Below, in pieces: positions 870-60,761 of a DNA stretch of 64,000 nucleotides (position 1 is the first letter of the stretch; each line of letters opens with the position of its first letter). A model generated the notes under the pieces. It was not told the DNA's origin. It ran no database searches and was given only the letters and a program-made list of their open reading frames with translations. Origin of the DNA: Chiloscyllium plagiosum (lineage: Eukaryota); NCBI RefSeq assembly GCF_004010195.1, contig NC_057753.1, positions 2,960,087-3,024,086 of the forward strand, read 5' to 3'. The position numbers and the translations under genes are program-made.

Positions 870-2056
870 TTCTTCGGATTATACAGCGTATTTTATAAAA
901 TTTCCCTAAATTTGCTTTGAGACTTTGCATCAATAAATGTGTTTGTACAGCAACTCAGCAACTGAACCTAGATCACACATTCTTGGAATATACTTTTGGT
1001 GCAACCGGAGACTTTTATAGCATAATCAGTTGCATGCCATTCATAAAACAGCTCAAGAATATACGGGCTTGAAATCACCCAAAAAGGCGACGAGTAACAT
1101 GAAGGACTTTCTCTCATTCTGCACGTCTGGGTCACGATGACCATCTGTATTGCCTTGATCACCGAATATTTCTGAGCTTTGCTGAACCATTAATACTTGT
1201 TTAACTGTCAGAGGATTCAGTGTGTTGTAACATGGCGATGGACACTTCTGCTGATTAAACCATACTCTGAGAATGCCAGCTTTTTTTTGTGTGTCCACCG
1301 CAAACATTGGATGATCCCACTAGTTTAAAGTTGTCAAAACAGTAAAATTCAAATTTGATTGGGGTTTTGTATCCTAGAGCATCGTTTAAACTGATTGATT
1401 AATTTCAAACTGTGATCAAAATAACTGAGGTATCTAGTTTACAGCCAAGTGTTGCATATATTCAATTTTCCAGAAAACTTTGAGACTTCTAGTCAGTCAC
1501 ATGACAGTTGCCTGCAACTAAGTGCAAATGGCCCATCACTCTCTCTTGTTAGTACATTACATGCCTGCGACTTCATAACGAGGAAAAGAACGAAACAGAA
1601 CAGCCAGGGAAGGATGAAGATAAGATTAAAACAATTAAGCACTGACCACAAATGAGATCCAGTGAATGTCTTCCAGTTTGCACCATTAAGTGGCGTAATC
1701 AATGACAAAGATCGTTCGTGAAGAAAATACCTTGCAAACGTCTCAGCAGAAACCATTCCTATAATCATTACTGTCTTCTATCAGTGAAATGTCTTCTTTT
1801 CAGCTTCAGGATAAAAAATGGACGGAAATCGATCAAATATGAAAGCAACACTAAACCATGCAGAGCTATCTCTGGATGTCTGGATAAAAGCATTGTTGAC
1901 ACCGCACACTTGTGTAACAGACAATTCTGCATGGAAAATGTTTGTCAGGAAAATGGTTCATTTACGCAGTAATAACGTGGTTTTCAATCACGCCCATGGA
2001 AACCGGATACTGGCTGATATATTAGGAGCAGACAGGAACACAATCTCCTAAATGAA
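870..2056 (-). pseudogene. GPCR pseudogene psi1 (exon 2 remnant), interrupted by a solo LTR
   Basis: Minus strand reads LSVTQVCGVNNAFIQTSRDSSAWFSVAFIFDRF, LNPLTVKQVL, DPDVQNERKSFMLL, QLLSCCTNTFIDAKSQSKFRE, with stops and frameshifts. Confidence 0.85.
1223..1580 (-). mobile_element. Internally deleted solo LTR inserted in TM5 of psi1
   Basis: Termini TGTTGTAAC...CATAACG. Body similar to 35640-35919. Absent from paralog psi2. Confidence 0.7.
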
Positions 2057-2969
2057 TTAGAATTAACATAGAGTGCGAGTTCCGTATTAGGCAAACAAAC
2101 GTAATACATGAAAGTAAAACAGAATTTGCTGGAAACATTCAGCAGGTCTGACAGCATTTGTGAAGAGAAATCAGAGCTTCTGTTCCAGTGATCCTTTCTC
2201 AGAACAATGGATTGGAATTCTGAAACATGCCCGTCTTTAGTGCTGAAATTAACATGGCTTAGATTCGTGCAAAATTCTCAACAAGGGAAATATATATATC
2301 CAAAACAATCAGAATCAAAACTGTTCAATAAATGGAAAAGTTCAATATATAGATAACATTGACTTCATTATGGCATTCTCAAACAGTGGATAAAGATGTG
2401 CCGTGTTCAGATTCAGGACAAACAGTTGAAAATGACAGAACAAAAAGTCGTGTAAGTCAGTCGTGAGAAGGGACTGTATAGGGGAAAGATAGACTTTGCT
2501 GTGGTTTCAAACGAGACACCAGAATGGCATGTTGGTCCTCTGGTGCCATGATCAACCATGCCTCAGAGGGAGAAGAGAATGCTGTGAATGGGGAGAATGA
2601 GCAGGCAAAGGTTGTAGTCCGTAAAGACAGGAAAAGAGATGAATTTGTGTGACGGGAGTTCAGTCAGCTGCTTAGGAAGATGAAAAGCGGATCTCCAGAA
2701 TTTAAACCTCAGAATTATTTCTTGTGCCATATGTCAGTGAAGCTAGGAATAGAACTAATTTATTTATTGTTGCCATATGTACTGAGATACAGTGAAAAGT
2801 GTTGTTTTAGGTAAAATGCAGGCAGTTCCTTTCAGACAAAATGCAGCAGGAGAGCAGAACGGAATGCAGAATACAGTATTACAGGTGCAGAGAGAAGGAG
2901 CTCAGGATAAAATTTGAGAAGTCCGTTCAAACAACTGCTAGAAGCTGTTCTTGAATTATTCGTGCATAT

Positions 2970-4230
2970 AGAACATAGAAAATGGAAATGTACAGCACAG
3001 GAGTGAACGCTTCCGCCCACGATGTTATGTCGAACAAGATACCAAATCAAACTTATCCCTTCCGCCTGCCCTTGGCCCATAACTCTCTATGGCTTGCATA
3101 TTCGTGCGTTAATCTAAAACTGTCTTCAATTTGCCTCAGCATCACTCCTGCCAGCGCATTCCAGACTCCTACCACTGCTTGTGTGTAACAACTTGCCCCT
3201 TACATCTCCTTTGAATCAGACCCCTCTCACCCTAAATGCATGGCCTCGAGATTTAGACATGACTACTCTAGGAATTAGATTCTGACAGTCAATCTTATCT
3301 ATGCATTTCATAATTTTATAGACTTCTGTTAAGTCTTCCCTCAGCATCCGTCATTCCAGAGAAAACAACGCAAGCTTTTCTACCTCTGTTTATAATTCTG
3401 TAATTCAGGAAGAACCTGGGTAAACCTCTTCTGCACCCCTCTGCAAAGCCTCTACATCCTTTCTGTAACGTGGCGAATAGAATTGAACACAGTACTGTCG
3501 GCGTGACATAAATAAAGTCTTAAAGAACCGCAACAGACAAACTGAACATTGTACACAATTCCCCAACCAATATACCAAAATCCCACTTTACCACCCTATC
3601 TATTTGCGTGGCCACTTTCACAAAGCTATGGACTTGAACCCTAGGATCCCTCTGTCCATCAATGCTGTTCAGGGTCCTCCCATTAATGGTATACTTTAAC
3701 TTAATTTTTGATCTCACAGACTGCAGCACGTCACACTTAAACGGATTAAACGCCATCTGCCAATTTCTCTGCCCATATCTGCAACTGATTTATGTCCTTC
3801 TATTTCCTTTGACAATTTTCTACACTCTCCACATCTCCAGTGATCTTTATATTTTCTGCAAACTTACGAGTTCACCCATCTAAATTTTCATCCAAGTCAT
3901 TTGTGCATATCACAAACAGCAGGAGTCCCAGTACAAATACTTGCAGAACACCACCAGTCACGGAGCACCAACCTGATAAGCAACATTCCACCGCGATCCT
4001 CTGTATTCTATCAGCAAGCCCATTATTGATCTATGCTGCCAAGCCACCATGGATTCCATGTATATTAAAACGCTGGGTGAGACTTGTCGAAAACCTTACT
4101 AGAATACATACAGTTAACATCCACTGCTCTCCCTTATTCTATTTCCCTTGTCACCTTTCCAGAAAATTCGATCAACTTAGTAAGACATGGCCTTTGGCCC
4201 ACGAAATAGTGACAAGTACGTAATATTAAT
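2970..4230 (-). mobile_element. CR1 LINE 3' portion (degenerate RT to 3' tail)
   Basis: Reads MAFNPFKCDVL...QVHSFVKVATQIDRVVK. 3' tail GAACATAGAA at the left end. Confidence 0.85.
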
Positions 4231-4240
4231 CTAAGATCGA

Positions 4241-4469
4241 CCAAGAATGTTGCTGGAAAAGCACAGCAGGTCAGTCAGCATTGGAGGAACAGGAAAATCG
4301 ATGTTTCGGGCAAAAGCCCTTCATCAGGAAAATCAGATTTTCCTTATGAAGGGCTTTTGCCCGAAACATCGTTTGTCCTGCACCTCAGATGCTGCATGAC
4401 CTGTTGTGCTTTTGCAACACCACTCTAATCTTGACGCTAATCTCCAGCATCTGCAGTACTCACTTCTGC
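4241..4469. mobile_element. Palindromic (head-to-head) Penelope-derived hammerhead-bearing short element
   Basis: Inverted arms ~4247-4334 and ~4336-4423. Flanking near-duplication CTAAGATCGA (4231) and CTAAGATCAA (4470). Confidence 0.8.
4296..4330 (-). ncRNA. Minimal type I hammerhead ribozyme motif (triplet decayed to ATC)
   Basis: Minus strand CTGATGA-A-GGGC-TTTT-GCCC-GAAAC-ATC. Confidence 0.65.
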
Positions 4470-5204
4470 CTAAGATCAATCTAAACCACAAACTCCTCAA
4501 TTTACTGCCTTTCATGTGCTTGTCCAGCAGTCGCTTAAATGTCACTCATGTGTCTGACTTTACTCCCACTTTATGATCAAAGGCGATATGTTTAACGGAG
4601 ACATAAGAGACAAGTATTATCTGCAGAGTGTGCAAGTGCCTTAAATGTGTTACCCAAAAGGTGGTTAGGCGAATACAATCGCAACTCATGAGAGGCATCT
4701 TGACAAATTCTTGACGAGGCAGCGAGTCGGGGATATGGCTTTTGGAATAATATTTTGATAAGATTAGAAGGTATCATGTATGAGCATAATCTTGGTGTCC
4801 CTAAGGGCATATGCCTATGCTGTACTCTTCTTTGTTATTTCTATTCCTTGATTTCTCTACATAGATGCTTACAGACATGCTGAGTTTCTCGAGCAATTTC
4901 TGTTTTGTTCATCTCACTTACTAGCTGCAATTTATCTTTTACAAACTCGCTGAACTGCTGGATGGAGAAATGGAGTGATATAAAAACCTTAGAGTAATAG
5001 AACTAATAACAGTCGTGCATTAATAATAGACGATATTCAGATAAACGCATTTCATTGCTGAAAATCCCTGCATACTACCAATCTTATGGAAATGAACTGA
5101 GAAAATTGAAGGATGTGCAAAATGTTAAGAGAAAATATTGAATATTGGAAATCATTTGAAACTAGAGTAAGTCAGATGCAGAGATAATTACAAAAAAACT
5201 ACAG

Positions 5205-5835
5205 TTAGATTCATAGAGTCATCGAGTTATAGAGTCCTACAGCACAGAGATAGACCGTTTGGTCCGAACTGGTCCATGCCGACAAAAATGTCTGTCCATG
5301 CTAACACAATTTCCCTGCACTTGGTCTGCATACTTCCAAATCTTTCCTATCCGTGTATTTGTCCAAATTACTTTTAAATATTTGCTAATGTACCCGCCTG
5401 AACCACTTCCACTTATCGCTCATTCTATATCCATATCACCCCCTGTGTAAAAACGTTGCCACCCATGTTTCCTTTTATTCTTTTCTATCTAACCTTAAAC
5501 TGATGCCTTCTCGTCTTCGATTCCCCAACCCTGGGAAAAAGACTGAGTACATTCACCCTATGCCTGCCTCTCATGATCTTATACACCTCCATAAGCTATT
5601 CCCCGCCCCCCTCCCCGCCCCCGACCTTAGTCTCTGACGCTGTAATGAAGGAAGTCCTAGCTTGTCAAACCTTTCCCGATAACTCACACTATTGAGTCCA
5701 GGCAGCATTCTTGCAAATTTCTTCTGCATTCTTTCCAATTTAATAACATGCTTCCTATTGCAAAGTGACCAATACTGGGCTCAACAACGTGGAGACATGC
5801 AACATAACTTCCCAACCTCTGTACTCAACGCCTGG
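5205..5835 (-). mobile_element. CR1 LINE 3' end (paralog of 22700-23320)
   Basis: VEYRGWEVML motif and (CATAGAGT)-type tail. Confidence 0.8.
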
Positions 5836-6519
5836 AATGTTCAGCATTTCTTCTAAAAAGCAAGCAGTGCTATGAAACTGTTGATCGAAGCATGATCTTG
5901 GAATATTCAAAAATAGGTCGAACATAAAGATTTTGCTAATACACATTCATGAAACAGATCTTTGCCTATCTTAGTTACCACATGCACCACAGAACAGGAG
6001 AAAGCAGATAGTCCACACCGGTAGTGTGGACACTTGATTTATTGAATATCTCCAACGATCGTCCTATTGAAAAGATTACCTGCAAATAAATGCAAGACCA
6101 GTCCATGGAAGTTTTCACAAGCCTGCTGTGTGTCTGGAAGAACACTGGCAATAATCCCCAATAGATTTATTTGCCTCTTCTCAGTTTAGTAATTGAGAAA
6201 CCTCGTTCACATGAATGGTTTTTCGACCTGATCGAGTATCTCGCTTCTGAATATTGATGCATTCAATGTAGAGGACAACATTTTTTTAAAAAAAATCGGA
6301 ACAACACATTACAACAAATTAAGCAGCACTGTATTAAATGGAAGCTGCACTAAAGTACATCTGCATAATCCAAATGATACAATCGAGGGTGCTAAATCCA
6401 AGCCATCAGAGGCGGATACGGGCATGAGGAGACTTTAAGCGATGCACCAGTGGACGTTGAGTACAACGTAAAGACAGAACTGTGTGTGCATGTCAAACTC
6501 AATTGTCAGTGACTGTCCC

Positions 6520-7075
6520 TGTGAGCCCGATAATTCCAGGAAGAAAGCGAAACAACGCCTTTTCTTCACCAGATGGCTTAGGAAATTTGCAACATCCACA
6601 AAATCCATCCCATGCTTTTACAGATACACCATTGAAAGCATACTGTCTGGGTGAATAAACGACCTGGTATGGCAACTGTTCTGCCCAGGATCATAATAAA
6701 CTACAAAAAGTTGTGTCAACAGTCAAACGTCAATCCATGGATTCCATTTGCATCGTTTGTTGCCACAGAACGGCTTGTAGCATCATCAAAGATAATTGTG
6801 CCAGGCAGTGCTCTCCTACAACCTCTTCCATCTGGCAGAAGTTACGGAAGTTTGAAAACATGCAACAGTAGTTTAAACTACAGCATCTTCCCTGTGCTTA
6901 TTAGAGTGATGAGCAGACTCTCGAACTTAAAATAGTGCCAATCCTGGTAATGTTGAACATGCCTAATGCACGCCTTATGCGAAGTAACCCACATGGCTCT
7001 GTACAACGTTTATGATTTATAATGATGTTCATATACTGCTCGTATACAAAGCTTTTCACTGTACTTTGGTAAAGA
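6520..7075 (+). mobile_element. Rex1/Babar-like LINE 3' fragment (paralog of 21360-21990)
   Basis: Reads KKAKQRLFFTRWLRKF...FYRYTIESILSG, WYGNCSAQD, LQPLPSGRSYGSLK. Confidence 0.75.
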
Positions 7076-7819
7076 AGAAAATACGTAAATCAATGTATCA
7101 ACTATGAAGATGTCTTATTGCTGATTTAGATTCAGCAAACAAAAACCCCTTTTATCCTTATCGACAGATGGATTACAGTGTTAGACTTGTTGCTAATATC
7201 CAGTTTCTCCAACCTGCAATCAGACTTTCAGACCATATAAGTCAAACGTAGTTGACCAATCACTAGTCAGCATTTACTGACAGAGAGCAAGAGAGAATTA
7301 TAATGTGGAAGAGAAAGAGATGAGGTAGGGAACACATATTGAGACACGTTGTATTCCTCTTTGGAAACGCTCGTACATCCTACCTTTTGGCCTCCTCAAT
7401 TTGCAGCCCTTTTGCTTTATCTATTACAGATCTGAATTGTGTTACATTTCCTACTGGAAATAAGTAGCATGTCAGGATCGTTTCACCACATATTTAAAAA
7501 AATACAAATCCTTACGTCTCGAACACGTTGAAGTCGCAAACATTATTTTTCGTTACATTATAGTGATATCGAGTTAGCCCGTTTAACAACGCCCATTATC
7601 CATCTCTGCAACTACACTGCGTTGTGTGATTTCTGAAAGAGATCCCTGAAGTAGGCGTTAAAAGTGGCGGGATGGAGCAGGGAGGCAATGTAAGGCAGAT
7701 GTTGTTCAAATACAATAAAGTTTCTACTTTTGATTCCTATTATTGTCGACCATGTGTTTCTTTACCAAGTCATTTCTCGAAAAAATTCAAGTACTGCAAA
7801 GACACTGGTGACTGTCACA

Positions 7820-8392
7820 TTTTATGCATCAGGCCAGACCCACTCAAAGCATTTCAAGTATGTTATATAGACTCTGTTTCTTTTTCTTAATATGAAGGTA
7901 AATGTGTAGTGGATATTCCAGATGTGTAGCAGCTGGTCAAATAGACTTTTGCGTTAAGGAAAGCAAAATTTATTTAAATATTACAGTTGAAACACGAACA
8001 AAAGAAAACAGAATTTAGAATAATTAATTACTTGAAAACCTATCCCTTTCGATATAACAATGAACCTAAAGAACTGTTCAGATTCCCTTAAAATCCCATA
8101 AATACACCCCTTGGCAAAAAGATAAATTCAACACAGGTGCTGACAGACAGGATTTCAGAGATGAAGCCAGTCAGTGGCCATCTGCTGAAGCTTGGAACCT
8201 TTGTCTGGACTTCAGCAACTTCTCGCTGTTATAACTTAGATAACTGGAAAAAACGTGAACTGGGAGAACTGAATACACCCCTGCCATCGTTAAACTAGGC
8301 TCTTACCAGATACTTCTGCACCTTTGCCTTAACAACATCTCTTGGAAAAAACCAGGACTAATTAATCTTGTTAAAGGGGCAGCATCGTCAGA
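7820..8392 (-). mobile_element. Solo LTR (paralog of 20494-21062)
   Basis: Same family as LTRs at 50223, 54897 and 58756. Ends GGGGCAGCATCGTCA. Confidence 0.8.
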
Positions 8393-8884
8393 CACACAGT
8401 CAAGGAATTGGGAGAGCGTGTTTATTCATTATCATGAAGTTAATTATCATTTGTTTCCATTTACAGCTGAACATTTTTTAATTGAATCCAACCTTTTCAT
8501 TCATGTTAACAGTAAAGATGACCTCTTGATTGTGGATATAAACGGGAGGATTGAAATTAATACAATTTTAATTTCAGTTTGCCCTCCAGCATTTCGTCAA
8601 TTCGTCGATATTTGGGCACAGTTTTGTAGTTCCGAGATGATGTTGTTCAACAAGGGATATTCGGTATAAACGATTGAATTCTCATTTCAAAGCATACCAT
8701 AGTACTGAAGAGTAAATCAATACTCAATATAGTATTAATTTTCCATAACTTGTTATTCCTTAATATGCAGGGTTCATCAGATTGGCTTGGCAATTATCCA
8801 ATGAAAATAAAACTTGTGGGATTTTGGCTTTGTATCAGAAGTTAGTCAGTATGCAGATGAAAAGTGAAAATAAATGAGAACAAC

Positions 8885-9214
8885 TTAAAATCGCTAAAGT
8901 GTGGAAACAGGCCCTTCGGCCCAGCAGGTCTACACTGGTCCTCCAAAGAGTAACCAACCCAGATCCATCCCCTTATTACTCTACATTTCCCTTGACTAAT
9001 GCAGCTAACACTACGGGCAATTGAGCATAGCCAATCCACCTAAACTGCATGCCTTTGGATTGTGGGAGGAAACTGGAGCACACCCACACAGACACGGGGA
9101 GACTGTACAAACTCCACGCATTCAGTCGCGTGTGATTGGAATCCAGCCTTGATCCCTGGTGCTGTGATGCTGCAGCGCTAACCACTGAGCCACTCTGCCA
9201 TGCTGCCGTTCCCC
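8885..9214 (-). mobile_element. HE1-type tRNA-derived V-SINE
   Basis: Box A TGGCTCAGTGGT, degenerate box B, V-domain CTCCCCGTGTCTGTGTGGGT, LINE-derived tail GGGCCGAAGGGCCTGTTTCCACACT. Absent from the duplicated partner near 19990. Confidence 0.85.
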
Positions 9215-9349
9215 TAATTAAAACTGTTTTCTTTTCACAACAAAGTATGTGAATTGTTTCAAATTCTGCATGTGAGATTGATGGCCAATGGATAGGAAGA
9301 TTAAAGTGTAGAATATAACATTGAATTACAATTAGAAGTCACTTTTGCA

Positions 9350-10058
9350 TCAATGAAATTGCTTGAAAATTAAACTGCATGGGTAGATAAATCCATCCTT
9401 TAACTCCATTCTGAATTTATTCTGAGTTCTTGGATAAATAAATGCGTTTTACAGGAACTCAAAAGCTGAAGCAGGTTTCTATTTTCCTGTGGACGAAATG
9501 TTGTCTCACTTCCGTCAGAACCTGTGTAATAAGAAACATTTACAATTGATTCATGAACTTTGGTCATGAAATGTAACGAGTATAACCGGATGAAGCTGCC
9601 AGAGATGGCAATGAGAAAAATGATGGACTTGGCCTGCTTCTCCATCTCAGTGTCACTTTGGGTCTTTCCATTACTTGTGGTTTTCAGCCTCCTGGGAGCA
9701 CTGTTGGCGGCTAGAATGTCCCTGATTGTCAGAGCATTGAGCAGTTATATCGAAATGAATGGATAATAAGGAGTCAAAACTACATGAAACCGGTCATATA
9801 CGGCCCATGCACGCGATACATAGTATGTTCATTTAAGTTCCCAAAACAGGGAACATTGTTTTCAATGTGCAAATGTTCGAATATAAAGTCAAAGATGAAC
9901 TTCTCAGACAGCTCAATGTACAGGTTGTTCCAAATACCCATATCGTTGTTTTCTTTGTATGATACTGTGCTTTCAGCTTCGAGCAAAGAATGTCTTCAAA
10001 TCGATCGAAAGTAAAAGTAACGCTTGACCTGGCAGAACTGTCAACTGCTGCATGGGTA
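9350..10058 (-). pseudogene. 5'-truncated inverted copy of GPCR gene A exon 2 (TM3 to C-terminus)
   Basis: Reverse complement aligns with 19130-19845 (KSIIFLIAISGSFIRLYSLHFMTKV, NVSYYTGSD, LQLLSSC). Frameshifted, and abutted at ~10060 by a CR1 fragment. Confidence 0.9.
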
Positions 10059-10059
10059 T

Positions 10060-13209: not shown

Positions 13210-13279
13210 ATGCATGGAATACCAAAAGGTCTTGTGTTTGCCATTTACTATCCCATCATTGCAGCTATCGGGGTTCCAG
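13210..13279 (+). CDS. GPR139/GPR142-like GPCR gene A, coding exon 1 (MHGIPKGLVFAIYYPIIAAIGVP + G)
   Basis: ATG at 13210, 70 nt, ending at phase-1 donor CCAG|GTAATA. Encodes the TM1 start YYPIIAAIGVP. Near-identical 70-nt exon at 47241. Confidence 0.88.
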
Positions 13280-18936: not shown

Positions 18937-19844
18937 CGAATTTTGCAGTTATTGTGATTCTGTGTCGAAGCAGATGCGGTCTGTCCAGATGTATAATTTG
19001 CTACCTGGTGTCTATGGCAGTCACAGACCTCTTGCTCATTATCACCGCTGTAATATTGAACCGGATCAATGGCATTTATTTCCCATTCAGTTATTTGTCA
19101 ATCACACCAATATGCAGCCTTCGTATTGCTGTAACCTATGCTGCTATTGACAGTTCCGTCTGGTTAACGGTCGCGTTTACATTCGATCGATTTGTGGCCA
19201 TCTGTTGCTCGAAGCTGAAAGCACGGTACTGTATAAAGAAAACAGCAGCATGGGTAATAGGCACAATCTGTACATTGAGCTGTCTAAGAAATTCATTTTT
19301 GTACTTTATATTTGAACCTTTGAAATTCGTAAACAATGCTGCTTGGTTTTGTGGAATTAAATTAACATACTACACATCACCTTTCTGGATCATATTTGAT
19401 TGGTTTCATGTAATTTTGACTCCTTATTTTCCATTCATTTCGATTTTGCTGCTCAATGCTCTGACAATCAGGCACATTCTAGCCGCAAACAGAGCCCGTA
19501 GGAGGCTCCGGACAACAAAGAATGGAAAGACCCAAAATGACCCAGAGATAGAGAAGCGGAGCAAATCCATTATTTTACTCTTTGCCATCTCTGGCAGCTT
19601 CATCCTGTTATACTCATTATATTTCATGACCAAGGTTTACATACGAATTACAAACGTTTCTTATTACACAGGTTCTGATGTTAACGAGGCAACATTTAGT
19701 CTGGAGGAATTTGGATACATGCTTCAGCTTTTGAGTTCCTGTATTAACCCATTTATTTATGCAGGAACGCAGAATAAATTCAGAATGGAGTTAAAGAATG
19801 GATTTGTCTACCCATACAATTTAATTGTCAAACTATTTCATTGA
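18937..19844 (+). CDS. GPR139/GPR142-like GPCR gene A, coding exon 2 (spliced product 325 aa)
   Basis: Polypyrimidine tract plus TTACAG acceptor ending at 18936. G|CG AAT gives ...GVPANFAVIVIL, in frame with ORF 18954..19844. 7TM motifs MAVTDLL, PIC, SVWLTVAFTFDRFVAIC, WFC, LLLNALTI, NPFIY, KFR. Confidence 0.93.
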
Positions 19845-20241
19845 TGCAAAGGTAACATCAAATTCTAACTCTATGTTACATTCCACATTTTAATATTCCT
19901 ATCCAAGTCATGCGTGGTCATCAATCTCACATGCATAATTTGAAAAATTCAAAATCTTTGTTGTGAGCAATAGTTTTAATTATCCACAAGCAGTCTATTT
20001 ATGTTGTTCTCATTTATTTTCACTTTTCATCTGCATCCTGACTCAATGCTGATACAAAGCCAGGATCCCACAAAGTTTATTTCCATTGGGTAACAGACAA
20101 GCCAATCTGGTCGGCCCTTCATATTAAGGAAGAACGAGCATTTAGAAATTTAGTACAATCCTGAATGTAGATTTAGTCTTCTGTACTAGGATATACTTTG
20201 GAATGCGAAGACGATCTTCCATACCAAAATATCTCTTGTTC

Positions 20242-20247
20242 AATAAA
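20242..20247 (+). promoter_or_regulatory. Candidate polyadenylation signal of gene A
   Basis: AATAAA ~400 nt after the stop codon. Motif only. Confidence 0.3.
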
Positions 20248-20493
20248 GCCGTCCCTGAACCACAAAATTGTGCCCAAATATGGACAAACTGACGAAATGC
20301 TGGAGGGCAAACAGAAATAATAATGATATTAATTTCAAACCTCCCCTTTATATTCTCAATGAAGGGTCATCTTGAATGTTAACAAGAATGATGATCTTGG
20401 ATTCAATAAAAGTGTTCAATTGTAAATGGTAACAAATGATAATAAACTTCATGACAAGAAATAAACACGCTCGTCCAATTCATAGAATAGGTG

Positions 20494-21062
20494 TGTGACG
20501 ATGCTGCCCCTTTAACAATGTTATTTTGTCCGTTATTTTCAAAACATGCTGTTAAGGCAAATGTGCAGAAATGTTTGAGAAGAGCCTAGTTTAACGATGG
20601 CAGGGATATATTCAATTCTCCCAGCTCACGATTTATTTCCAGTTATTTGAGTTGCAACAGTGAGAAGCTGCTGAAGTCCAGACAAAGGTTTCAAGCTTCA
20701 GGAGATCTTTCCTGACTGGCTTTATCGCTGAATGTTCTCCTGCCTGTAAGAACCTGCGTCGAATTTACCATTTGCCAAGAGGTGCACTTATGGGATGTTA
20801 TAAGAATTGGAACAGCTCTTTAATTGCAATATCGAGTTGTTTAGGTTTTCAAAAATTAAATTATTCTAAATTCGGTTTCCTTTTGTTCGTGTTTTAACTG
20901 TACTATTTAAATAAATTCTCTTTTGCTCAAAGCAAAATTCTGTTCGACACTTTGCATCACGCCTGGCATATCTGTTTCACAACTGCCTTTAAAATAAGAA
21001 AAGGAAAGGGTCTAGGCGACCTTTTTGCAATGTTTTGGGTGAATCTGGCCTCGTCCGTAACA
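20494..21062 (+). mobile_element. Solo LTR downstream of gene A
   Basis: TGTGACG...CCGTAACA termini. Same family as the LTRs flanking the 54897-59513 element. Confidence 0.85.
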
Positions 21063-21359
21063 TATGAAGCTCACCAGTGGCTTTGAATTTCAATGAGAAA
21101 TTACTTGATGAAAAAACACATAGTTGACAGCAATAGGAACCAAAAGTAGATTTAGGAATTAAAAGTAGACAAGCGACTGGTTAATTAACTTGAACCTATG
21201 TGCTCTGCAAGCTTTATTGTAGGTTGAATATTCTGAATAATATTAGTGAAGTTAATATTGTACTCCATCTGTGGACAAAGGTAAAGGGGGTTTGTGTTTG
21301 CTGATTCGACAACAGCAATATGACGTCTTTCTCAAAACTCGCTAAGACTTCTTTATGAC

Positions 21360-28720: not shown

Positions 28721-28759
28721 AATTGTGCTTATTCCTGAAGCAACTGTTCCTGTGCCACC

Positions 28760-38345: not shown

Positions 38346-38352
38346 CTTGTGC

Positions 38353-38442: not shown

Positions 38443-38888
38443 AACAGGATGGAAAGTGGGAAAGGGCAGGCCCTTCACTACAAAACAAAGACTAGATCAC
38501 ACTGGGAGCAGTTTACCACAGGTAGAAAAACAAGCCCTGGGGGTGAAAAGGAAGTGAACGGCCTCAGGTGTTTCCACTGTAATAGGGCGGGACACGTAAA
38601 AATACGGCCCTAGTCATTGAAGGAAGGGACTCTGGGTAAAATGTGGTAAGTTAAGTCAGTGGGGTTAGTGAAAGTAGTAATGGAAACCCCAGGAAAAGTT
38701 GAGAAGGTGCAGGGGAGTGCACAGCCTAGGAGCGGGCTGATTAATGAGTTAGTGCCCGATCTCTTATGAGACTTCAAGTCAGTGATTTAGTTTAATCAGG
38801 AAGAACAGCGAGAGGAGGGAAAGCAATTACAATTTTAAGGTATCTCCCCAGTCTCTACTTGTAAGAGATAAAAATATTTGCACTCTTT

Positions 38889-40516
38889 AGAACATAGAAT
38901 ATAGAACAGTACAGCACAAAACAGACCCTTCAGCCCACAACGTTGTGCCGACCATTGATCCTCATGATGTACCCTCAAATTTCTGTGACCATATGCATGT
39001 CCAGCAGTCTCTTAAATGTCTCCAATGACCTTGCTTCCACAACTGCTGCTGGCAACGCATCCCATGCTCTCACAACTCTCTGTATAAAGAACCCGCCTCT
39101 GACATCCCCTCTATACTTTCCTCCAACCAGCTTAAAACTATGACCCCTCGTATTAGCCATTTCTGCTCTGGGAAATAGTCTCTGGCTATCGACAATATCT
39201 ATGCCTCTCACTATCTTGTATACCTCAAATGGTCCCCTCTCCTCCTCCTTTTCTCCAATGAAAAATGTCCGAGCTCAGTCGAACTTTCTTCATAAGATAA
39301 GCCCTCCAGTCCAGGCAGCATCCTGGTAAACTTCCTCTGAACCCTCTCCAAAGCATCCACATCTTTCCTATAATAGGGCGACCAGAACTGGATGCAGTAT
39401 TCCAAGTGCGGTCTAACCAAACTTTTACAGAGCTGCAACAAGATCTCACGACTCTTAAACTCAATCCCCCTGTTAATGAAAGCCAAAACACCATATGCTT
39501 TCTTAACAACCCTGCCCACTTGGGTGGCCATTTTAAGCGATCTATGTACCTGCACACCAAGATCCCTCTGTTCCTCCACACTGCCAAAATTCTTATCCTT
39601 AATCAGCTTTAAATTCGACCTTCCAAAATGCATCACCTCGCATTTATCCAGGTTGAACTTCATCTGCCACCTCTCAGCCCATCTCTGCATCCTGTCAATG
39701 TCCCGCTGCAGCCTACAACAGCCCTCTTTTCTGTCAATGACACCTACAACCTTTGGTCGTCTGCAAACTTGCTGACCCATCCTTCAATCCCCTTATCTAT
39801 GTCATTAATAAAAATTACAAACAATAGAGGCCCAAGGATAGAGCTCTGTGGAACACCACTCACCGCAGACTTCCAGGCAGAATATTTTCCTTCTACTACC
39901 ACTCGCTGTCTTCTGTTGGCCGCCAATTCTGTATCCAGACAGCTAAGTTCCCCTGTATCCCATTCCTCCTGACCTTCTGAATAAGCCTACCATGGGGAAT
40001 CCTATCAAATGCCTTGCTGAAGTCTACATACACCACATCCACAGCTCGACCCTCATCAACGTTTCGAGTCACATCCTCAAAGAACTCGAAAAGATTTGTG
40101 AGGCATGACCTGCCCCTCATAAAGCCGTGTTGACTGTAATTAATCAAGCCATGCTCTTCCAGATAGTCATAAATCCTATCCCTCAGAATCCTTTCTAACA
40201 CCGTGCAGACCGACAGACTTATTGGTCTGTAATTGCCGGGGATTTCCCTATTTCCTTTATAAAGAGAGGAACTACATTTGCCTCTCTCCAGTCCTCAGGT
40301 ACGACTCCAGTGGAGAGCGAGAATGCAAAGATCTTCGCAAGTGGTGAAGCAATTGCATTTCTCGTTTCCCAAAGCAGCTGAGGACAAATCTGGTCTGGGC
40401 CTGGCGACTTGTCAATTTTTAATGTTTGACAAAATTTTCAGCACATCAGCTTCCTCTATCTCTATCCATTCCAGCATGCACACCTGCTCTTCAAAGGTTT
40501 AATTCACTACAAAGTT
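38889..40516 (-). mobile_element. Young CR1 LINE (RT to 3' tail)
   Basis: ORFs 39896..40201, 39744..39926, 39211..39780, 38975..39211 with canonical CR1 RT motifs. (AGAACAT)n tail. Confidence 0.93.
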
Positions 40517-41004
40517 CGTCTTTCTGACAGGTTAATCGAGAGATGGCGATTTGTGGAATAGATGGACAGAAAATTTGTGTTCCTGTGTGTAATATCAGAT
40601 TGGAGACCCAAATAAAGACTGGGGAAATAATAGTGGGAATGATGGACAGAGTATCTGTTCCAGGATTACAATTTATTCTTGGAAACGCCCTAGCAGAATT
40701 CAAGATGGGAGTGACGCCCCTTGTGGTGGAAAAGCCAAGTGAAAGCTAGGGAATGAAGGAGTTAAAAGAAAATGTCCTGAAATTTTTCCAAACTGTGATG
40801 TAACAAGATCCAACTTCCATAAGTTACAATAAGAAGGAAAAACTAAAGAGAGAGATGAAGGAGTTGATATTCAGTTGGCTGACACCCTGTTTGATACAGT
40901 GGTACAGGAACAGCCCGAACAAGTAGAGGGTCAGGCAGGAGTGTTTATTCCTGAAAAGCTAATGGACTTAAACAGGTAAATGGTACACTAAAAGATATAT
41001 ATAC

Positions 41005-41060
41005 CACACACACACACACACACACATATACATACGCATATATGTATGTATATGGATATA
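41005..41060. repeat. (CA)n/(TA)n microsatellite
   Basis: CACACA run followed by TATG/TATA-type repeats. Confidence 0.9.
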
Positions 41061-41344
41061 TGCTCAGAAAAGAAATCCGAATTTATTCACAAGAGTTATT
41101 ATTCTAAGGATAGAATTCTAAAACGAAAATGGAGACCACGGCAAATTAGTGCAGAGGAAAAACATGTGGCTGTGCACCAGAATGTGTTGCTGGTAGCATA
41201 CGGACAGGAATTAATGCAGGTAAGGCATGAATTACTAGTGGGAGGTCACCTAGAGGTGACGAAGACTCAGGCTAAAGTGACAAAAGCACTTCTATTGGCC
41301 TGGACTGCATAAAACTGTGGTCGAACTTTGCTGTAAATGTGGCA

Positions 41345-44238
41345 GAAATGTCCACTTAGTCCCAGACATCACAGTACTGCTCTTTTTTTCCCGATATCAT
41401 ATGAAATTCTCGAATTACGTTTGTTTTTGCATACTGTCGGGCAATCTGTCCATGTCCATTAAGATGGCCAAGCAAGGTGACTTGGGCTTTGGCAAATTAA
41501 ATCTCAGCCATGTTTAACACCAAGCCTGCCGACTGACGTTGATTGAACAGTTCTGATCAATGTTGCAAATGTTCTTTTCACGTGTGACCGAAAACGGCTG
41601 GGTCATCAATACAAACTACACAACTGCGAGATGCGAAAGTGACCTCATTGGTTCGTCTTTGCAATATGGCTGGCGCATTTTTCATACGCAATGGCATGAC
41701 TTTAAATTGATACAGTCCAGTCGGCATGACGAAAGCCAAAAGTTTCTTCGCTCTTTCAGAGAAAGGGACCTGCCAATCCCCTTTGAATGAGTTCAACTTA
41801 AAAATGTAAGCTGTTTGCCTCTCATTCTCAAAACAGTCTTTCAAACGTTGAATTGGCTTTTTTTCAAACTTTGTAACTGCATTGACTTTAAGATAGTCCA
41901 CACATAACTATTGAGTACCATATGGTTTTGACAACATTGCTATTGATGAACTCCATTGACTGCAACTCAATTCGATTATGTCGTTTGGAGCATGCGTTCA
42001 ATCTCCTTTTAAACTTGAGAGTGTGAAACCAATAAGAATGTTGCTTAATCAGAACAACATTTCCTATCTCTACGTCATGCATAATGAGGTTAGCACTTCT
42101 TAGCTGATTTCCACACTCTCCTTTTGATTTCCTTCCCTGTCAAAACATATTTTGAGCATATTCACATGACACACTATGAAATTTCTTTTCATCTGGAGTC
42201 CTTACCTAATAATTCACCTCACTCAATCTTCTTTCGACTTGATCTGGTCCACTAAACCTTGCTTTTAAAGGTTCACTTACCACTGGAAGTAACACTAACA
42301 CTTTACCTCCGATAGCAAAATTGCGAGTTTTTCATTTGTTAACTGCTTCCTGTTTCACTGAATGCTGTGATACTTTTAAATGCGGACTAGCCAACTCCCC
42401 CGCTCTATTTCGCCATTCCATAAAATTTGATAGAGTCCAAATGTGTGTTCTTTGAATTCTGACTTGCCAGTTTCTCTTTTATTAATGTTAGCAGTCCTCT
42501 CACAGCATGCTGAAAAACCCATTGAAATGAATTGAATTTGCTCGATGCATTTGGCGCATCTATGCGTGCAAAATCTTAAAAAAAAAACAGAATACCCTAA
42601 TCCCAATCATCTGGATAGTCTTGGCTATAACGCTTCAATTTGAATCTTAATGCCTAATGGCATCTTTCTAGCGTTCACTGCGATTCTCGATGGTGTGCAG
42701 TAGATTAGACTTGCTTTTTTTTCCAGAAGCTGTCCATAACGTCCTTGAATAATTTTGACGCAAGGTTTCAACCTTGAAATGATTGTGTCTCTGTGGGTGC
42801 TCCAAAAATTTGAGTAACTCTTCTTCAATACTTTTAGCTTTGGTAAGTGTAACGGAACGGCTTCTGTAAATCTAGTGGACGCACCCATTACTGTTAACAA
42901 ACACTAATTTCTACTTTTTTTGTTTTAGGTAGGAGTCCTTCACAATTAATTAAGACTCTTGTAAAAGATTCCTCAAATCAGGAGCAGGTATTAAAGGTAC
43001 GGGCTTTATTATTGTCAATAGTTTTCCAATAACCTGACATGTATTACAGTTGAAAAATGTGGTGCTGGAAAAACGCAGCAGGCCAGGCAGCGTCTGAGGA
43101 GCAGTATTACAGTGTCTGGCAAAATTCAACGACATCCTTGTGCAGCCCGGGCCACTAAAAATGTCTTTGCATTTTGGCTTGAGCTTTTCTTACCTCTAAT
43201 TGACCTTCATGTGCTACCCGCAACACCTCCTTTCTGTAACTCACTGGCAATATGACTTGGTGAACTTTTGCCCATTTCTCATCTGCCTGAATCTGCCATC
43301 TCATCATTAAGACATAATTTTTAAGATAATCGCACTTAGGAATACATTCAGATTCTTCCTCTGTGTATGTTTTTTGATATGACTGCTTTAGTTTTTCATC
43401 TTTCTGCTGTAACTCAGTTAATATCTCTAAGCTAAAGATGTTTACTTTATCGTCCATCTCCTCCTGGCGTGTCGCAAACATTTGATCATACAGGCTCTCC
43501 AATAATTCCACTTAAGCTTTCTTATCCGAACTCTTTGATGTCTCCTGTTTCAACTAGTGACTTTGTGACCTCGTTGCCATGCAGTCCAGAAAAGTTCCTT
43601 TAATAGCTCAGTTTCCCGATTTTACAGTGGCAGCGCTCCTACGCGTGAACCAGCAAGGACAAATGGTATTCCTGGAGACAAGATGTCCAGTATTCTTGCC
43701 ACATTTGTCTGCACTTCACCGGACACCTGAACATTATTCTGCATAATTCAGTACTTCTTGTCCTACTGTGAATTCCCGTTACTTGCACTTTTGTTTTCTG
43801 ACAATAGACCTCTAAAGGTACATATCTCGTCATCTTTCAACATCAAAGATTGAGAGGATCCTGTATCTCTTAATATTGTAACCTCTTTAACTGCTCCGTG
43901 AGACAGGTGTGGGTAAACTTTACCTTCGCAAGTGTATGGTTTAAGAAATCTGGCACTTACTTCTTAACCAAGCTCCGACCAGTTTGTACATTCTGGTGCA
44001 ACTTTTTAATCTCCACTGTGTTTTCTGTTACAACTCCAACCAGATTCAGTGGCTTGTCCTGTTTTGCTACGTCTGTCATCCCAGCGTTTGTTTTCTAAAC
44101 CACCAACACTGTCATTTCACATGGCCTACTTTATTGAAGTGAAAACACCAGAGCTTTTTAATTACTCTTTCCCCTTCTAGAGTTTCCCTTTTCTCCCCTG
44201 CAGTAAATTACCCTCGTGATCTTCACTGAAATCTATTG
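41345..44238 (-). mobile_element. Gmr1-type Gypsy internal fragment (gag-PR-INT-RT)
   Basis: LRDTGSSQS protease, EVLRVAHEGQLEVRK, STRFTEAVPL integrase, FVMPTGLYQFKVMPL and CIDD RT. 53-bp Penelope tail inserted at 43051-43103 with TSD GTATTACAGT. Confidence 0.85.
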
Positions 44239-47240: not shown

Positions 47241-47310
47241 ATGCACGCTCTGCTGAGAGGCCTGGTGTTTGCCATTTATTATCCCATCATTGCAGTTATC
47301 GGGGTTCCAG
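47241..47310 (+). CDS. GPR139/GPR142-like GPCR gene B, coding exon 1 (MHALLRGLVFAIYYPIIAVIGVP + G)
   Basis: ATG at 47241, 70 nt, donor CCAG|GTAAAG, paralogous to exon at 13210. The frame is open further upstream, so the start could be earlier. Confidence 0.86.
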
Positions 47311-52436: not shown

Positions 52437-53001
52437 TGTGCACTGAGATAGATATGTTCTTCTTCCCCTTGATAATTCTGGTCTCCACATTGTGGATTCC
52501 ACACTACCAAATCCAAGACCTTTTTGTGTATCACACTCATTTTACTCATGCTAGCAACGCTACTGCAACATCCTTTCTTCCATGCCTTATCTTTTGACAA
52601 GTCACGTGACCCTGAATATTTAGTTACCAACTTTGACCTCTTTCTAACTATGTCTTTCGTAATAAAATCATGCCCATTAACTGGTTTTTCAGTTGTTAAT
52701 TCATTTTGTTTTCTGAATTGTGCACTGAGATAGATATGTTCTTCTTCCCCTTGATAATTCTGTTCTCCACATTGTGGATTCTGCACTACAAAATCCAAGA
52801 CCTTTTTGTGTATCACACTCATTGTACCTCATGCTAGCAACGCTACTGCAACATCCTTTCTTCCATGCCTTATCTTTTGACAAGTCACGTGACCCTAAAT
52901 ATTTAGTTACCAACTTTGACCTCTTTCTAACTATGTCTTTCGTAATAACATCATGCCCATTAACTGGTTTTTCAGTTGTTAATTCATTTTGTTTTCTGAA
53001 T
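52437..53001. repeat. Recent tandem duplication, 2 x ~282 bp
   Basis: Units start at 52437 and 52719 (TGTGCACTGAGATAGATATG), with only a few substitutions and one small indel. Confidence 0.95.
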
Positions 53002-55440: not shown

Positions 55441-58400
55441 CCCTTTCATTGTTCATCGTCCTCTTCCGATTTCTCTTCAAAAAAAAACAAACTCAAAATA
55501 GTCTTTTTTAAAGTGATAACATTTTCATATCTCCCACCTTTAAAACATGAACCATCAATATACAAAGCTGGCTTCGTTTTAAACCCTTTAGTCTCATTCT
55601 GTTAGTACACAACAAAATATACATATTACATTGACTCTAAGTATGCAACATTTCACGATTCAACGAAATTTTCTGCACTTCTTCAATAAGTCAGTGAATG
55701 GAGCAAGCACACTGCTAACATTTGGCACGAATACTTGATTAAAAAAATCCATGCAATCTCAGGAAACGTAGCACTCTCTTTTCGTCGATGTTTCGTCCTC
55801 AACAAACTTTGTTTTCACATTCTGTAGGGGTCATCTGTCCATGTCCGATAACATGGCCCAGTAGTGTGACTTGGGCTTTGGCGGATTAAGTCTTCACCAT
55901 GTTTATCGACAAGTCTGCATCCCAAAGCCAATTGAATACTTCCAATAAATGCTGCAAGTTTTTCTAATGGGAAAAGGTGCAAACGATTTTCTTTATCCTA
56001 ACCGTCTGGATAGCCTTGACAAGGTGCCCATAACATGCCCTTTAAAGTTTGATGCCACCCTTCTAACATGCGCTGCAATTCTGAGTGGAACGCAATGGAT
56101 TGGAATTGGTTTATTCCTAAGCTATCATTTCTGCCTTGAATATTTTTGATGTAAAATTTGACCCTTGATCTGTTGTATCCCTGTAGATAGTCCGGATCGA
56201 ATGTAAAATTTTAATAACTAATAGACGTTCCTTTCAGTTGTAGTATTGCGTAATGGAATGGCCTCTTTAACTATAGTGGATACATCCATTATTGTCAACA
56301 AATACTGATTCCCACGGTTTGATTTAGGTAAGGGTCCTATGCAATTAATTAAGACCATTGCAAATAGTTCTTCAAATACATGAATGGGTTTTTAAAGTGC
56401 TGCTTTTAATACTATCTGAGGTTTTCCAATTACCTCTCGTGTATGACATGTCTGTCAAAATCGAACTGCATGCTTATGCAGTCCAGTCCAGTTTAAAGAT
56501 ATTTTTTGTATTTTGACTTAAGTTTTCCCCACCCCTAAATGACCTCCTATTACCCATAACACCTCCTTTCGTAACCCACTTGTAGTACAATGTAATGAAT
56601 TTCTGTCCATTCCTCATCCAACTGAATATATAATGGATCTACATTTCCTCGTCAAGTTATCATTTTTTTAAGATAGTAGCATTCGGCAATAGACTCAGAT
56701 TTCTGTTCTGTGCCTGTTTTCCAATACAATTGCTTCAGATTTTCATCTTTCTCTTGCAACACAGTTAATTTCTCTGAGGTAGAAATATTCACTTTGTCCT
56801 CCATCTGCTCTTGCTTTGACTCAACCATTCGATCAAACACGGTCTCCCATAATTCCAATTCAACTTTATTATCTGTATTCTTTGATTTCTCGTCTTGTTC
56901 CAATTGGTCGCTTTGTGACCTTGTTATCATACAGTCCGGAAACATCTCAGGATGTGCTTCCAGTAATACCTCCATTGCCTGGCTCTCCACTAGCTTTTCA
57001 ACCACAGTAGGCAGCACTCCAGCCTGTGACCCAGCTATGTTGTCAGCAAGAACAAATTGCATTCCTGGAGCTGAGAGTTTTTCCACTACTCCTACCAGAA
57101 CGTCTCTACTTTTCACTGGACACTCTAACCTGCATAATTGAGCAGTTCTTGTCTCACCATGAATTTCACACACTCAGATATATTCCAGTAAGAATCCTTC
57201 TGAGTTGCATATCTCTTCATCTTTCAACTGCAAAGATTGCATGATCCTGTATCTCGTAATACCGTAAATCATTTATCTCCTGCTCTTGACTGCTGCGAAT
57301 AAATCTCATCTTCATGAGCAAATGCTTTAAAAATATCCGGCACTTCCTTCATAACAAACCTCTAATCAGCTTTTTGCCTCCACTGTTCTTTAACAAAATT
57401 GGCTGGCTTATCCCGTTTTCCTACATCCGTCTTCCCAGTTCTTTTTCTAAACCACCAACGCTATGAATTTATGTAGCCTACATTATCACAGTGAAACACT
57501 TGAGGTTTTTAACTTCTCTTTCCCGTTCAAGGGATTCCTCTTTACACTGTGGTAAGCTATCTTTATTATCTTCAATGAGATCTACTTTCATAACCACCTG
57601 AGGGTTTCTATCCCCCACAGATTGAATTTGATCATGGAAACCAAACTAAGATTTATGAAGAACACATAATCTTCAGCCATTTCAGCAGCTAAACGTGCCG
57701 TTTTAACTCTCTGCTCTTCCACGAGAGTTCTCACTACCTCTGGATGTGAATTTTTTTAACTCTTCCAAAATGATCGTCTCTCTATGACCATCATATTTTT
57801 AATGTCCTTATCCACCGATCAAAATTATTTTGTTTGGTTCTTTCAAACTCAATGTATGTTTGAGCAGGGTCCCTTTTTCGATTCCTGAAGCGTTGTTCGT
57901 AGGCTTCTGGCACAAGTTCATATGCACTTAAGATGGCTTTCTTCACCTCCTCTTACTCCCTACATACCTCCTCTGATAGTGATGCAAATACCTCCTTGGC
58001 TGAACCGACCAACTTTGTTTGGATCAACAAAACCCATATATTCACTGGCCATTTCATTTCTTTCACCACTTTCTCAAATGAGATGAAGACGTCTTCTACA
58101 TTCTTCTCATCAAATTTGGGCTGTACTTGGATATATTTAAATAGATTCCCACTAGGCCTTTGGCCACCATAGTTTTGCTCATCATCACTATCTTCACTAA
58201 GCTTACTTTTTACCTCCATTTCTTTAAGCCAACTTTCCTGTCTAATTGCAAACTTCTGAAGTTCAAACACTCTCTCTTCTCAGTTCTCTCTCTCTCTCTT
58301 CTTCCCTTCCTTCTGCGACGACCTTCCTCTTCTTTGCTTTTTGTTCCGCCAGAGTGAAGCTTTTCTCTTCCGATTCCTTTGCTTTTTATCATAAATCATG

Positions 58401-58734
58401 CTGTTTCAGTTCTCTTTCATGTTCAAGCTGTTTCATATGCCATTGAATTCTACCCATTTCCTAGATTCTGATGGTGTTTCCAGCGACCTTAAATGTCGAG
58501 CTGTTGCTGTAATTGCTTCTCGTTTTCTCACAGCTTGCCTTGCAATTTCAACAGCTTTGCGTTGCTCACCTTTTGTGAAACTCGCAAAGTTATTTCCTCC
58601 ACCCTCAGAAAACTCGTAGTGACTGAAAGAGCCATTGCTTCACAAATTAAAGCGTAATCCAATCGAATTCAGCACCTACCTATCGCTCTGTGTGTGTCGA
58701 ACAATCCAAACGCTCAAGTGGAATTATAGAATCA

Positions 58735-58752
58735 ATCCTAGACGATCCCCCA
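58735..58752 (-). promoter_or_regulatory. Primer-binding site, tRNA-Pro type
   Basis: Minus strand TGGGGGATCGTCTAGGAT, 15/18 match to canonical PBS-Pro TGGGGGCTCGTCCGGGAT, 3 nt from the LTR edge. Confidence 0.75.
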
Positions 58753-59835
58753 ATCTGTTGTGGACCAGGCCAGACGTCCACAAAATATTTTATAATGTAG
58801 CCTAGACTCTCACCTTTTTCTTAACGTCAGATGTGAAGTGTGTGTTACAGGTGTGATGCAACTGGTCAAATCATTCAGCTTTAGGCAAAACAGAATTTAT
58901 TTAAACGCTACAGTTGAAACACAAACAAAAGAAAGCAGAATTTAGAATAAATAAACTATTGGAAACCTTAACCGACTTGAAACAGTAACGAGCACAAAGT
59001 AAATCTTCCGATGCAGGCCGTCAACACACGCCTTGTTAAAAAGACAAATCCAAAAGATAATTCTAATAGGCAGGAGGGAACAACATCCAGAGACGGAGAT
59101 TTCAGAGAAAATCAGAGGAATTGTTTACTGAAACTTGAAACTGTCCGGGAATCACACATCTTGTGACTGTACAGCTCAACACAAACGAGACAAAACATGA
59201 CCTGAGGTAACTGGTCACTCTCTTTCCATTGTACACATAGACTTCTGTATCTCTGTCTTTACGACTTCTCTTCAAAAAACCCATCGTCACACCTCGCACA
59301 TTAAAAAAAAATCATCAACATTCAAAGATGGCTTTATTTTAAAGCCATTAGTCTTACTCTGCGACGTTTAACTGACAAACAATGAGAACTCTGACCTGAG
59401 AGAGTGGGCTACTCCCCTTCCATTGTGAAACTAGACTATTCCGCGCCTGTGCTTTATGGCGTCTCTTTTCAAAAAAGCAAAAAATAGCCTTTTAAAGTGA
59501 CAGCCTCGTCACAACATTGATTTTACTCATGTCAGATAGGGTTAAGGGGGCTGATGTCTCATTTTTGCTCCACATTTACAGTAAGCATACACTTTGGTCG
59601 GTCTCACTGAATTATTTTCAGAACTTATACACGTGATCTGCTAAATTTTTTACCAGAATGGCTGTATAAAAACAAGGAAATAAGTACCCAAAACAGACAC
59701 AATCTTTGTCAAAGTTGTGCCACGTTTCAAAATGTATATTTCACTCAAAAGCCTGCAGCATTCGTTATTTTGTTGGATTACAATAGTCATGTCCACAATC
59801 TTTTCTATCTTTATATCTCTGTCTATCTGTTACAG

Positions 59836-60761
59836 CTAACCTGGCAGTAATTGTGATCCTGTTGCAAAGAAGATATGGTCTATCTGGATGTATCACATAT
59901 TACATCGTGTCCATCGCAGTGGCAGATCTTCTGGTTATGGTCATGACCGTAATATTAAACCGGATTGCTGGGATTTATTTTCCCTACAGCTTCCTGTCTA
60001 TCACACCAGTATGCAGTGTACGTAATGCTCTAAATATGGCAGTTACTGACAGTTCTGCCTGGCTGACAGTCGTTTTCACCTTTGACCGATTTGTGGCCAT
60101 CTCTTGCCAGAACCTGAAAGTAAAATATTGCACCAAGAAGGTGGCAGCGTGGGTTATAGGAATTGCATGTGCATTGACCTGCCTAAAAAATATCTTCCGG
60201 TATTTTTATTTTGAACCAAGGTACGTAATTAATGGCATACCCTGGTTCTGCGACATCAAATCAATATATTATACTTCACCAGCATGGACTGCATATGATT
60301 GGATTCGACCTATTTTAAACCCTTGTCTCCCATTCATTCTGATTTTGCTGCTTAATGCCCTGACCATTAGACACATTCTCGTGGCTAATAGAGCCCGTGA
60401 GAGACTTCGGAATCAGAGAAATGAAGAGAATCAGAGTGACCCAGAGGTAGAGAGGCGCAAAAAGTCCATTATTTTACTCTTTGCCATCTCAGGCAGCTTC
60501 ATCCTGCTGAATTTATTATATTTTGTAACAATCCTCTATGTCCGAATTGCGAATGCTACTTATTCCTCAGGTGCTGATGTCAATAATTCCACATTTGTTC
60601 TCCAGCAGAGTGGATTTATGCTTCTGCTATTGAGCTCTTGCACCAACCCATTTATTTACGCTGGGACGCAACGTAAATTCAGAGACGAGTTAAAGAATGT
60701 GATTAAATATCCAAAGAACCTATTCTTTAAAACAGTCAAACTGGAAAATCGAAAAATCTAA
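59836..60761 (+). CDS. GPR139/GPR142-like GPCR gene B, coding exon 2 (spliced product 331 aa)
   Basis: Acceptor TGTTACAG ends at 59835. G|CT AAC gives ...GVPANLAVIVIL, in frame with ORF 59853..60761. Motifs IAVADLL, PVC, FDRFVAISC, WFC, NPFIY. Intron 47311..59835 is 12.5 kb. Confidence 0.93.

Follow-up and report, generated by a model that had tools for sequence, protein, structure and literature searches.

Among described G protein-coupled receptors (GPCRs), GPR139 and GPR142, which are receptors for Trp and Phe (PDB 7vug and 9m42), belong to the same wider clade as the genes reported here, and they have been described as orthologues of MIP peptide receptors (PMC6380545). GPR210A and GPR210B have been named as orphans near GPR139 and GPR142 in coelacanth, gar and fishes (Rinne et al. 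2019, PMC6504862). Published work credits cartilaginous fishes with few GPCRs, MAS1-type receptors being reported as absent (PMC8455134), and with few olfactory receptors (PMC10116579); their known olfactory receptor (OR) repertoires hold 20–62 genes, with a mean of 43.8 (PMC10869828). Here, we analyse a stretch of 64,000 nucleotides of the Chiloscyllium plagiosum genome (C44:2.96–3.02 Mb, contig NC_057753.1), hereafter the window, which proves to be a slice of a multi-megabase array of one receptor family. The window had been proposed to hold five paralogous loci, two intact two-exon genes (A and B) and three pseudogenes (C, D and E), and six-frame translation and tblastn of the whole stretch confirm this (Table 1). 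The family evolves by birth and death and extends far beyond these five copies, and we give a probability of roughly 0.5 to the reading that it serves as a set of sensory receptors for discriminating between many external peptides or chemicals.

The scale of the family is seen in searches of the 3.56-Gb genome. When gene B was the query, the best 129 of 8,163 candidates were scored and all were near full length at 58–100% identity, approximately 79 of them (hand count) falling in the 1.5–13 Mb interval of C44, while two further queries returned disjoint sets of at least 121 and at least 131 loci. By hand count, the three queries give at least 381 distinct near-full-length loci, of which approximately 278 are stop-free within the match; these are the best-scoring copies and are hence biased towards intact ones. 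A motif in the third transmembrane helix (TM3) had 1,533 matches in the genome and a motif of exon 1 plus its donor had 1,355, with no match for either reversed control. The TM3 count is a floor, because the pattern matches only gene B of the five window loci and missed six of 30 loci of a young subfamily described below; it recovered 87% of the 91 loci used to build it. All 40 TM3 hits in a hand-picked, non-random sample from the first 100 listed are family sequence. A few hundred intact second exons can safely be stated, and extrapolation would place their number near 500. Unplaced contigs carry many of the copies, some of which could be alleles; yet 32 young copies are only 81–97% identical, with a median of 92%. 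The expanded birth-and-death family proposed in the earlier note is thus borne out by both motif counts, and the genome-wide tblastn count proposed there returned hundreds of loci, intact and broken, rather than just a few copies. The copy number approaches that of the largest OR repertoires, which have 2,278–2,399 complete genes (PMC10869828). Whatever their function, more than 1,500 loci with at least a few hundred open frames and a selected rim contradict the claim that these fishes are poor in GPCRs.

Database proteins matching two queries numbered 1,358 and 2,276, and sharks were the source of every one of the 120 top-ranked proteins for either query. Named representatives also occur in skates, rays and Callorhinchus, and the RefSeq models called "probable G-protein coupled receptor 139" or "neuropeptides capa receptor-like" in sharks, rays and chimaera are members of this family. 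The proposed lineage-specific expansion therefore stands as one of cartilaginous fishes, with matches in sharks, rays, skates and chimaera. In a quick tree of 81 rows, sequences from chimaera and rays are interspersed with the shark subfamilies, which suggests that the expansion started before the shark, ray and chimaera lineages split; a clade restricted to chondrichthyans is weak (83/65) in a tree of 32 rows. Outside cartilaginous fishes, the nearest proteins form one conserved cluster in each listed amphibian species (20 clusters, 66–74% identical to the salamander query), together with a sturgeon protein. This amphibian and sturgeon orphan (P0218, P0418–P0437) is single-copy, is mislabelled GPR139 and carries Ser in place of Asn1.50, and no amniote or teleost protein was among the 25 matches listed.

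The 32-row tree joins the family and the salamander genes with support of 100/99 and unites them with GPR210-type genes at 98/97, with GPR139 and GPR142 apart. In contrast to the single amphibian cluster, the shark has both the expansion and two low-copy GPR210-type genes (C26:36600769-36601743, L031; C98156:21305-22210, L032), which are orthologous to coelacanth and teleost genes; the GPR210 label is given to these shark sequences on the basis of taxa and tree position. Identity of the family to the GPR210-type and amphibian relatives is 29–32%. Since a separate orthologue of the coelacanth GPR210-type gene exists at 64% identity, the family is a sister subtype, and these comparisons indicate that it arose beside the GPR210-type orphans and not from GPR139 or GPR142. 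Neither the GPR210-type orphans nor the amphibian gene had been named in the earlier note. The intron position is held in common across the wider clade. A phase-1 exon-2 acceptor lying two bases ahead of the codon for the TM1 Asn was predicted at 101 of 105 loci, among them GPR139, GPR142 and the two shark GPR210-type genes; the four misses are due to an N gap, a broken copy, a wrong pick and an unrelated outgroup.

The window genes could also be regarded as orthologues or recent duplicates of GPR139 or GPR142 that sense Trp and Phe, and this has been suggested by the automatic RefSeq names, the common intron position and the presence of GPR139, alongside TRHR, as the nearest solved relatives in a PDB profile search. 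GPR139 and GPR142 also resemble the family in two-exon layout, in the W3x42-region and DR motifs and in the Asn at 5.58. However, the same genome separately holds one GPR139 gene (C21) and one GPR142-like gene (C24, 55% identical to GPR142), identity of the family to these single-copy receptors is 20–22%, and the approximately unbiased (AU) test rejects a tree in which GPR139 is forced into the family (p = 4e-20). The earlier note had itself argued that these are not GPR139 orthologues and had proposed a phylogeny with GPR139 and GPR142; that phylogeny shows no 1:1 orthology, and the argument holds. A single-sequence PDB search did not recover GPR139, and a search of the ESM Atlas gave leads only.

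The note's further suggestion, that the family may detect amino acids among other ligands, fares differently when taken as Trp/Phe sensing by analogy with GPR139. Residues on which GPR139 depends to respond to Trp/Phe or to agonists (PMC5430874, PMC8807744) were mapped onto 123 family sequences via the shark GPR139 orthologue. E3x32 is kept in none of them, R6x51 in three, N7x38 in four, F3x33 in 26, H5x43 in 43 and W6x48 in 86; among the last five of these six positions, gene B keeps none and gene A only H5x43. As the pocket residues are not kept, Trp/Phe sensing cannot be transferred from GPR139. Orthology is refuted, and we consider it highly improbable that the family is a set of GPR139-type amino-acid sensors. 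In the young subfamily the deep-pocket positions are nearly fixed.

Genes A and B are 64% identical and had been said to differ most at the ligand-facing parts. This can be upheld in moderate form: the excess of differences on the extracellular face is real but modest in size (49 of 110 extracellular-facing positions differ, compared with 54 of 180 in the core; Fisher p = 0.009). Identical positions number 5 of 14 at the top of TM5, 5 of 11 at the top of TM3, 8 of 17 in extracellular loop 3 (ECL3), 7 of 13 at the top of TM6 and 19 of 33 in ECL2. The claim needs qualification in that regions away from the ligand face are also divergent, with 7 of 14 identical positions in lower TM2 and 16 of 27 in each of the intracellular loops ICL2 and ICL3.

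The proposed site-wise dN/dS analysis (ratio omega) was run with an own-built codon model (M0, M1a and M2a) in which gene conversion stands outside the model, and it divides the family. For the window subfamily (29 sequences), omega is 0.25 under M0, and regional values are 0.19 for the core and 0.30 for the extracellular face, which is purifying selection. The young subfamily, which lies on C8 (L106–L125, L146–L175) and many unplaced contigs in at least 131 scored copies that are 83–100% identical, gives a likelihood ratio of 631 for M2a against M1a over 32 intact copies, with omega2 of 9.6. All 14 selected sites are extracellular (ECL1, ECL2, TM6 top, ECL3 and TM7 top), where 107 of the 287 columns lie. 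The signal persists when each third of the alignment is given a separate tree (17 of 18 sites extracellular). Two sets of RefSeq proteins, 18 from whale and zebra shark and 52 from horn shark, were also compared, and in each set the 20 most variable positions include 13 of the 14 sites. The variability of the same rim sites in independent shark proteins argues against assembly noise. Ligand-face diversification is thus strong in the young subfamily and merely relaxed in the window subfamily.

A rim under such selection is also what an innate immune or barrier repertoire might display, in which receptors on leukocytes, mast-like or epithelial cells would detect microbial or parasite peptides or evade pathogen proteins. 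The rodent MRGPR and formyl-peptide receptors offer a parallel, being tandem-expanded class A orphans with extracellular positive selection that respond to peptides in sensory neurons and immune cells, although they belong to an unrelated lineage and number tens of genes against hundreds to over a thousand here. The high omega2 at fixed rim sites that vary in several shark lineages around a constant deep pocket is consistent with this explanation, and the intensity is that of the arms races typical of immune receptors. The N-terminus of the young subfamily, long and variable, points the same way, with an omega of 0.93 against 0.31 in TM1 (seven copies). Conversely, the older subfamilies, including that of the window, are under plain purifying selection, and no immune-gene neighbour was recognised by eye in the open reading frames of twenty 10-kb loci, the sole check of neighbours. 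An immune role seems to us possible but rather doubtful; if true, the oldest living lineage of jawed vertebrates would possess a system of innate recognition that has gone unnoticed. Rapid rim diversification could likewise arise in reproductive or social recognition, with receptors of gametes, reproductive epithelium or pheromone neurons for individual- or species-specific peptides. The peptide-receptor ancestry of the clade, which includes the MIP/sex-peptide receptor group, would suit such a role, and shark v2r paralogues are expressed in testis as well (PMC11979771). However, hundreds of paralogues are probably more than gamete recognition usually needs, and we regard this explanation as improbable.

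The young subfamily is also informative with respect to how copies arise. Its N-terminus of about 60 amino acids opens with a variable number of 14-amino-acid repeats, and its introns carry 40-bp and 65-bp minisatellites. Exon-1 and exon-2 cassettes duplicate separately: C8:1880001-2080000 (L177–L196) contains six exon-1 cassettes and no exon 2 in 200 kb, where some might be concealed by ten N gaps, and arrangements such as E1-E1-E2-E2 occur at C8:10566001-10646000 (L208–L215) and C8:6706001-6766000 (L200–L205). It is possible that separate cassettes are spliced combinatorially. A block of about 0.8 kb, common to both exon types, lies approximately 2.1–2.5 kb upstream of many exon 1s and exon 2s of this subfamily. 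We also considered transposon-borne dispersal for the C8 copies, which is unsupported, as they have the intron, minisatellites and 3' flank in common, as in segmental copies.

Reads from one single-cell run whose source tissue is unnamed (X5) demonstrate that the young subfamily yields polyadenylated transcripts. The reads are most abundant at the 3' end in sense orientation and carry poly(A) tails at three positions just beyond two signals (AATAAA/ATTAAA), where the genome has no A-run. On one copy, only two of 256 reads reached at least 99% likeness, and several paralogues therefore probably contribute. In one RNA contig of run X7, a GT donor in the upstream block of L176 is spliced to the exon-2 acceptor; this non-canonical upstream exon would give a receptor without most of TM1. 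At L147:1400-1780, run X5 has reads in the opposite orientation, with T-runs near 1634–1637 and a sharp loose end at 1780, and there is possibly an antisense transcript over the exon-2 start.

Duplication of this kind could be largely passive, with a few functional orphans multiplied in duplication-prone, minisatellite-rich regions and most copies idle. The minisatellites carried by the cassettes, the orphan exon-1 and exon-2 cassettes, the broken state of most sampled motif hits and pseudogene C, which was probably dead at birth, would all be expected in that case. They are set against approximately 278 stop-free second exons among the best-scoring loci, an omega of 0.19–0.25 for the core and the window subfamily, site omegas far above 1 at positions that recur across species, the existence of transcripts, and subfamilies that sharks have in common with chimaera and rays. 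Passive amplification of the whole family is largely refuted by these points, and we assign it little probability.

If the family is a sensory repertoire, the constant transmembrane and intracellular core would couple all members to the same G-protein pathway, and the variable rim (N-terminus, ECL1, ECL2, TM6 top, ECL3 and TM7 top) would set specificity. The ligands would probably be peptide-sized rather than free amino acids, given the constant deep pocket, the hypervariable rim and the fact that the clade to which the family belongs has MIP-receptor ancestry. Expression is predicted to be sparse, with few receptors per chemosensory cell in nose, skin, mouth or gut, and roles may vary among subfamilies. 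The family is best viewed as a receptor repertoire that stems from an orphan lineage not expected to yield one. The family resembles OR, TAAR, V1R, V2R and T2R repertoires in its tandem clusters, birth and death, many pseudogenes and variable ligand face, but differs in GPCR lineage, in its one coding intron and in selection at the rim instead of the deep pocket. More tentatively, and with less than even odds, it may constitute the chemoreceptor repertoire that sharks, rays and chimaeras have seemed to lack, a seventh family of chemosensory GPCRs in vertebrates, independently recruited from a peptide-receptor orphan that amphibians kept single, with hundreds of working receptors against the 20–62 known and with separate cassettes possibly adding combinatorial N-terminal diversity. 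The family also makes the paradox of shark smell, large noses with few olfactory receptors, testable with existing RNA data and in situ probes.

Several observations weigh against a sensory repertoire. Among the 40 sampled TM3 hits, exon 2 is intact in nine (ten with L140), broken in 23 (22) and affected by N gaps in eight, and because cassettes also duplicate separately, leaving partnerless runs, complete genes are fewer than either motif count. M2a brought no gain and no positively selected sites in the window subfamily or in a C46-type set of 29 sequences, and a single mechanism may therefore not hold for every subfamily. An omega near 10 exceeds usual odorant-receptor values and is typical of host-pathogen or gamete recognition. 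The exons of gene A drew essentially no reads in the 2% of run X5 that was sampled, in which repeats alone were covered; of the other runs aligned with gene A, X1 and X2 are DNA and X6 gave no alignment, and these results speak neither for nor against expression. Finally, catshark olfactory neurons are microvillous and express V2R/OlfC receptors (PMC10116579).

The family is known to RefSeq under automatic names, and we found its size, origin and selection nowhere in print. No published description was found, although subscription papers and several supplements beyond our reach (e.g. the catshark genome and the Squalomix tandem-cluster tables) could mention it. The accessible parts of PMC10620051, PMC11979771, PMC12208981, PMC8455134, PMC7677710 and the Squalomix preprint contain no description, and GPR139 does not appear in the accessible supplements, where one unrelated GPR142 row is present.

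Within the window, class A membership is supported by invariant columns that include N1.50, D2.50, the C3.25–ECL2 Cys pair, DR, P5.50 and NPxxY. Exon 2 of both genes matches Pfam 7tm_1 (E = 7e-24 and 2e-22), and as this is the only profile in the window genes, no family-specific profile places them in the OR, TAAR, V1R, V2R or T2R families; the trees were built without OR or TAAR sequences. A weak Srx profile match was obtained for two of five homologues. The predicted structure has seven long helices (pLDDT 68), and a fold search with the model returned generic class A receptors only. Genes A and B have no internal stops, and their GT-AG introns, both in phase 1, span 5,657 nt and 12,525 nt, respectively; paralogues of gene B at 93% and 89% identity lie 52 kb and 21 kb further on C44. 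The motifs that the earlier note ascribed to all five loci are present in A and B, but YYP..IGVP sits in exon 1 and hence in these two genes only, and the remaining motifs are degenerate in C, D and E, for which no exon 1 was found within the window. Pseudogene C has stops and three single-base deletions, and its exon 2 is missing approximately 65 codons at the start. Since C and D form one inverted duplicate of the block from A exon 2 to E, the five loci do not represent five independent births.

Table 1. Receptor loci and the associated duplication in the 64-kb window (positions within the window)
Feature	Position	Strand	Description
Gene A exon 1	13210-13279	+	ATG to phase-1 GT donor; N-terminus and first half of TM1; fits genome-wide exon-1 pattern
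Gene A exon 2	18937-19844	+	TM1 Asn1.50 to TGA; spliced product 325 aa, intact
Gene B exon 1	47241-47310	+	ATG to phase-1 GT donor; fits genome-wide exon-1 pattern
Gene B exon 2	59836-60761	+	Ends at TAA; spliced product 331 aa, intact
Pseudogene C	~9350-10057	-	Inverted copy of A exon 2, truncated at the 5' end; summed E 4e-72 to A
Pseudogene D	~857-2030 (approximate ends)	-	Heavily decayed exon-2 remnant; inverted partner of E; E 3e-9 to 2e-11; interrupted near 1230-1640
Pseudogene E	~33330-35063 (approximate start)	+	Decayed exon-2 remnant; E 1e-10; split by ~0.9 kb insertion, ~33790-34650
Inverted segmental duplicate with C and D	252-10057	-	Mirrors 19134-35645 (A exon 2 to E); 72-80% nucleotide identity, four blocks

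No promoter common to A and B was found beyond chance words of 9–11 nt, and a 26-bp satellite is absent among the four arrays in the window. The insertion that splits pseudogene E (33790–34650) has no Pfam hit; we take it to resemble the 3' end of a Penelope-type retroelement. Remnants of retroelements occupy introns and spacers: fragments of LINE reverse transcriptase occur at many sites between 11500 and 46900, and decayed remnants resembling long terminal repeat (LTR) retrotransposons, with reverse transcriptase and RNase H hits, lie at 36190–44235 and 55800–58300. The intron of gene B also contains a recent tandem duplication of 283 bp (97% identity) at 52437–53001.

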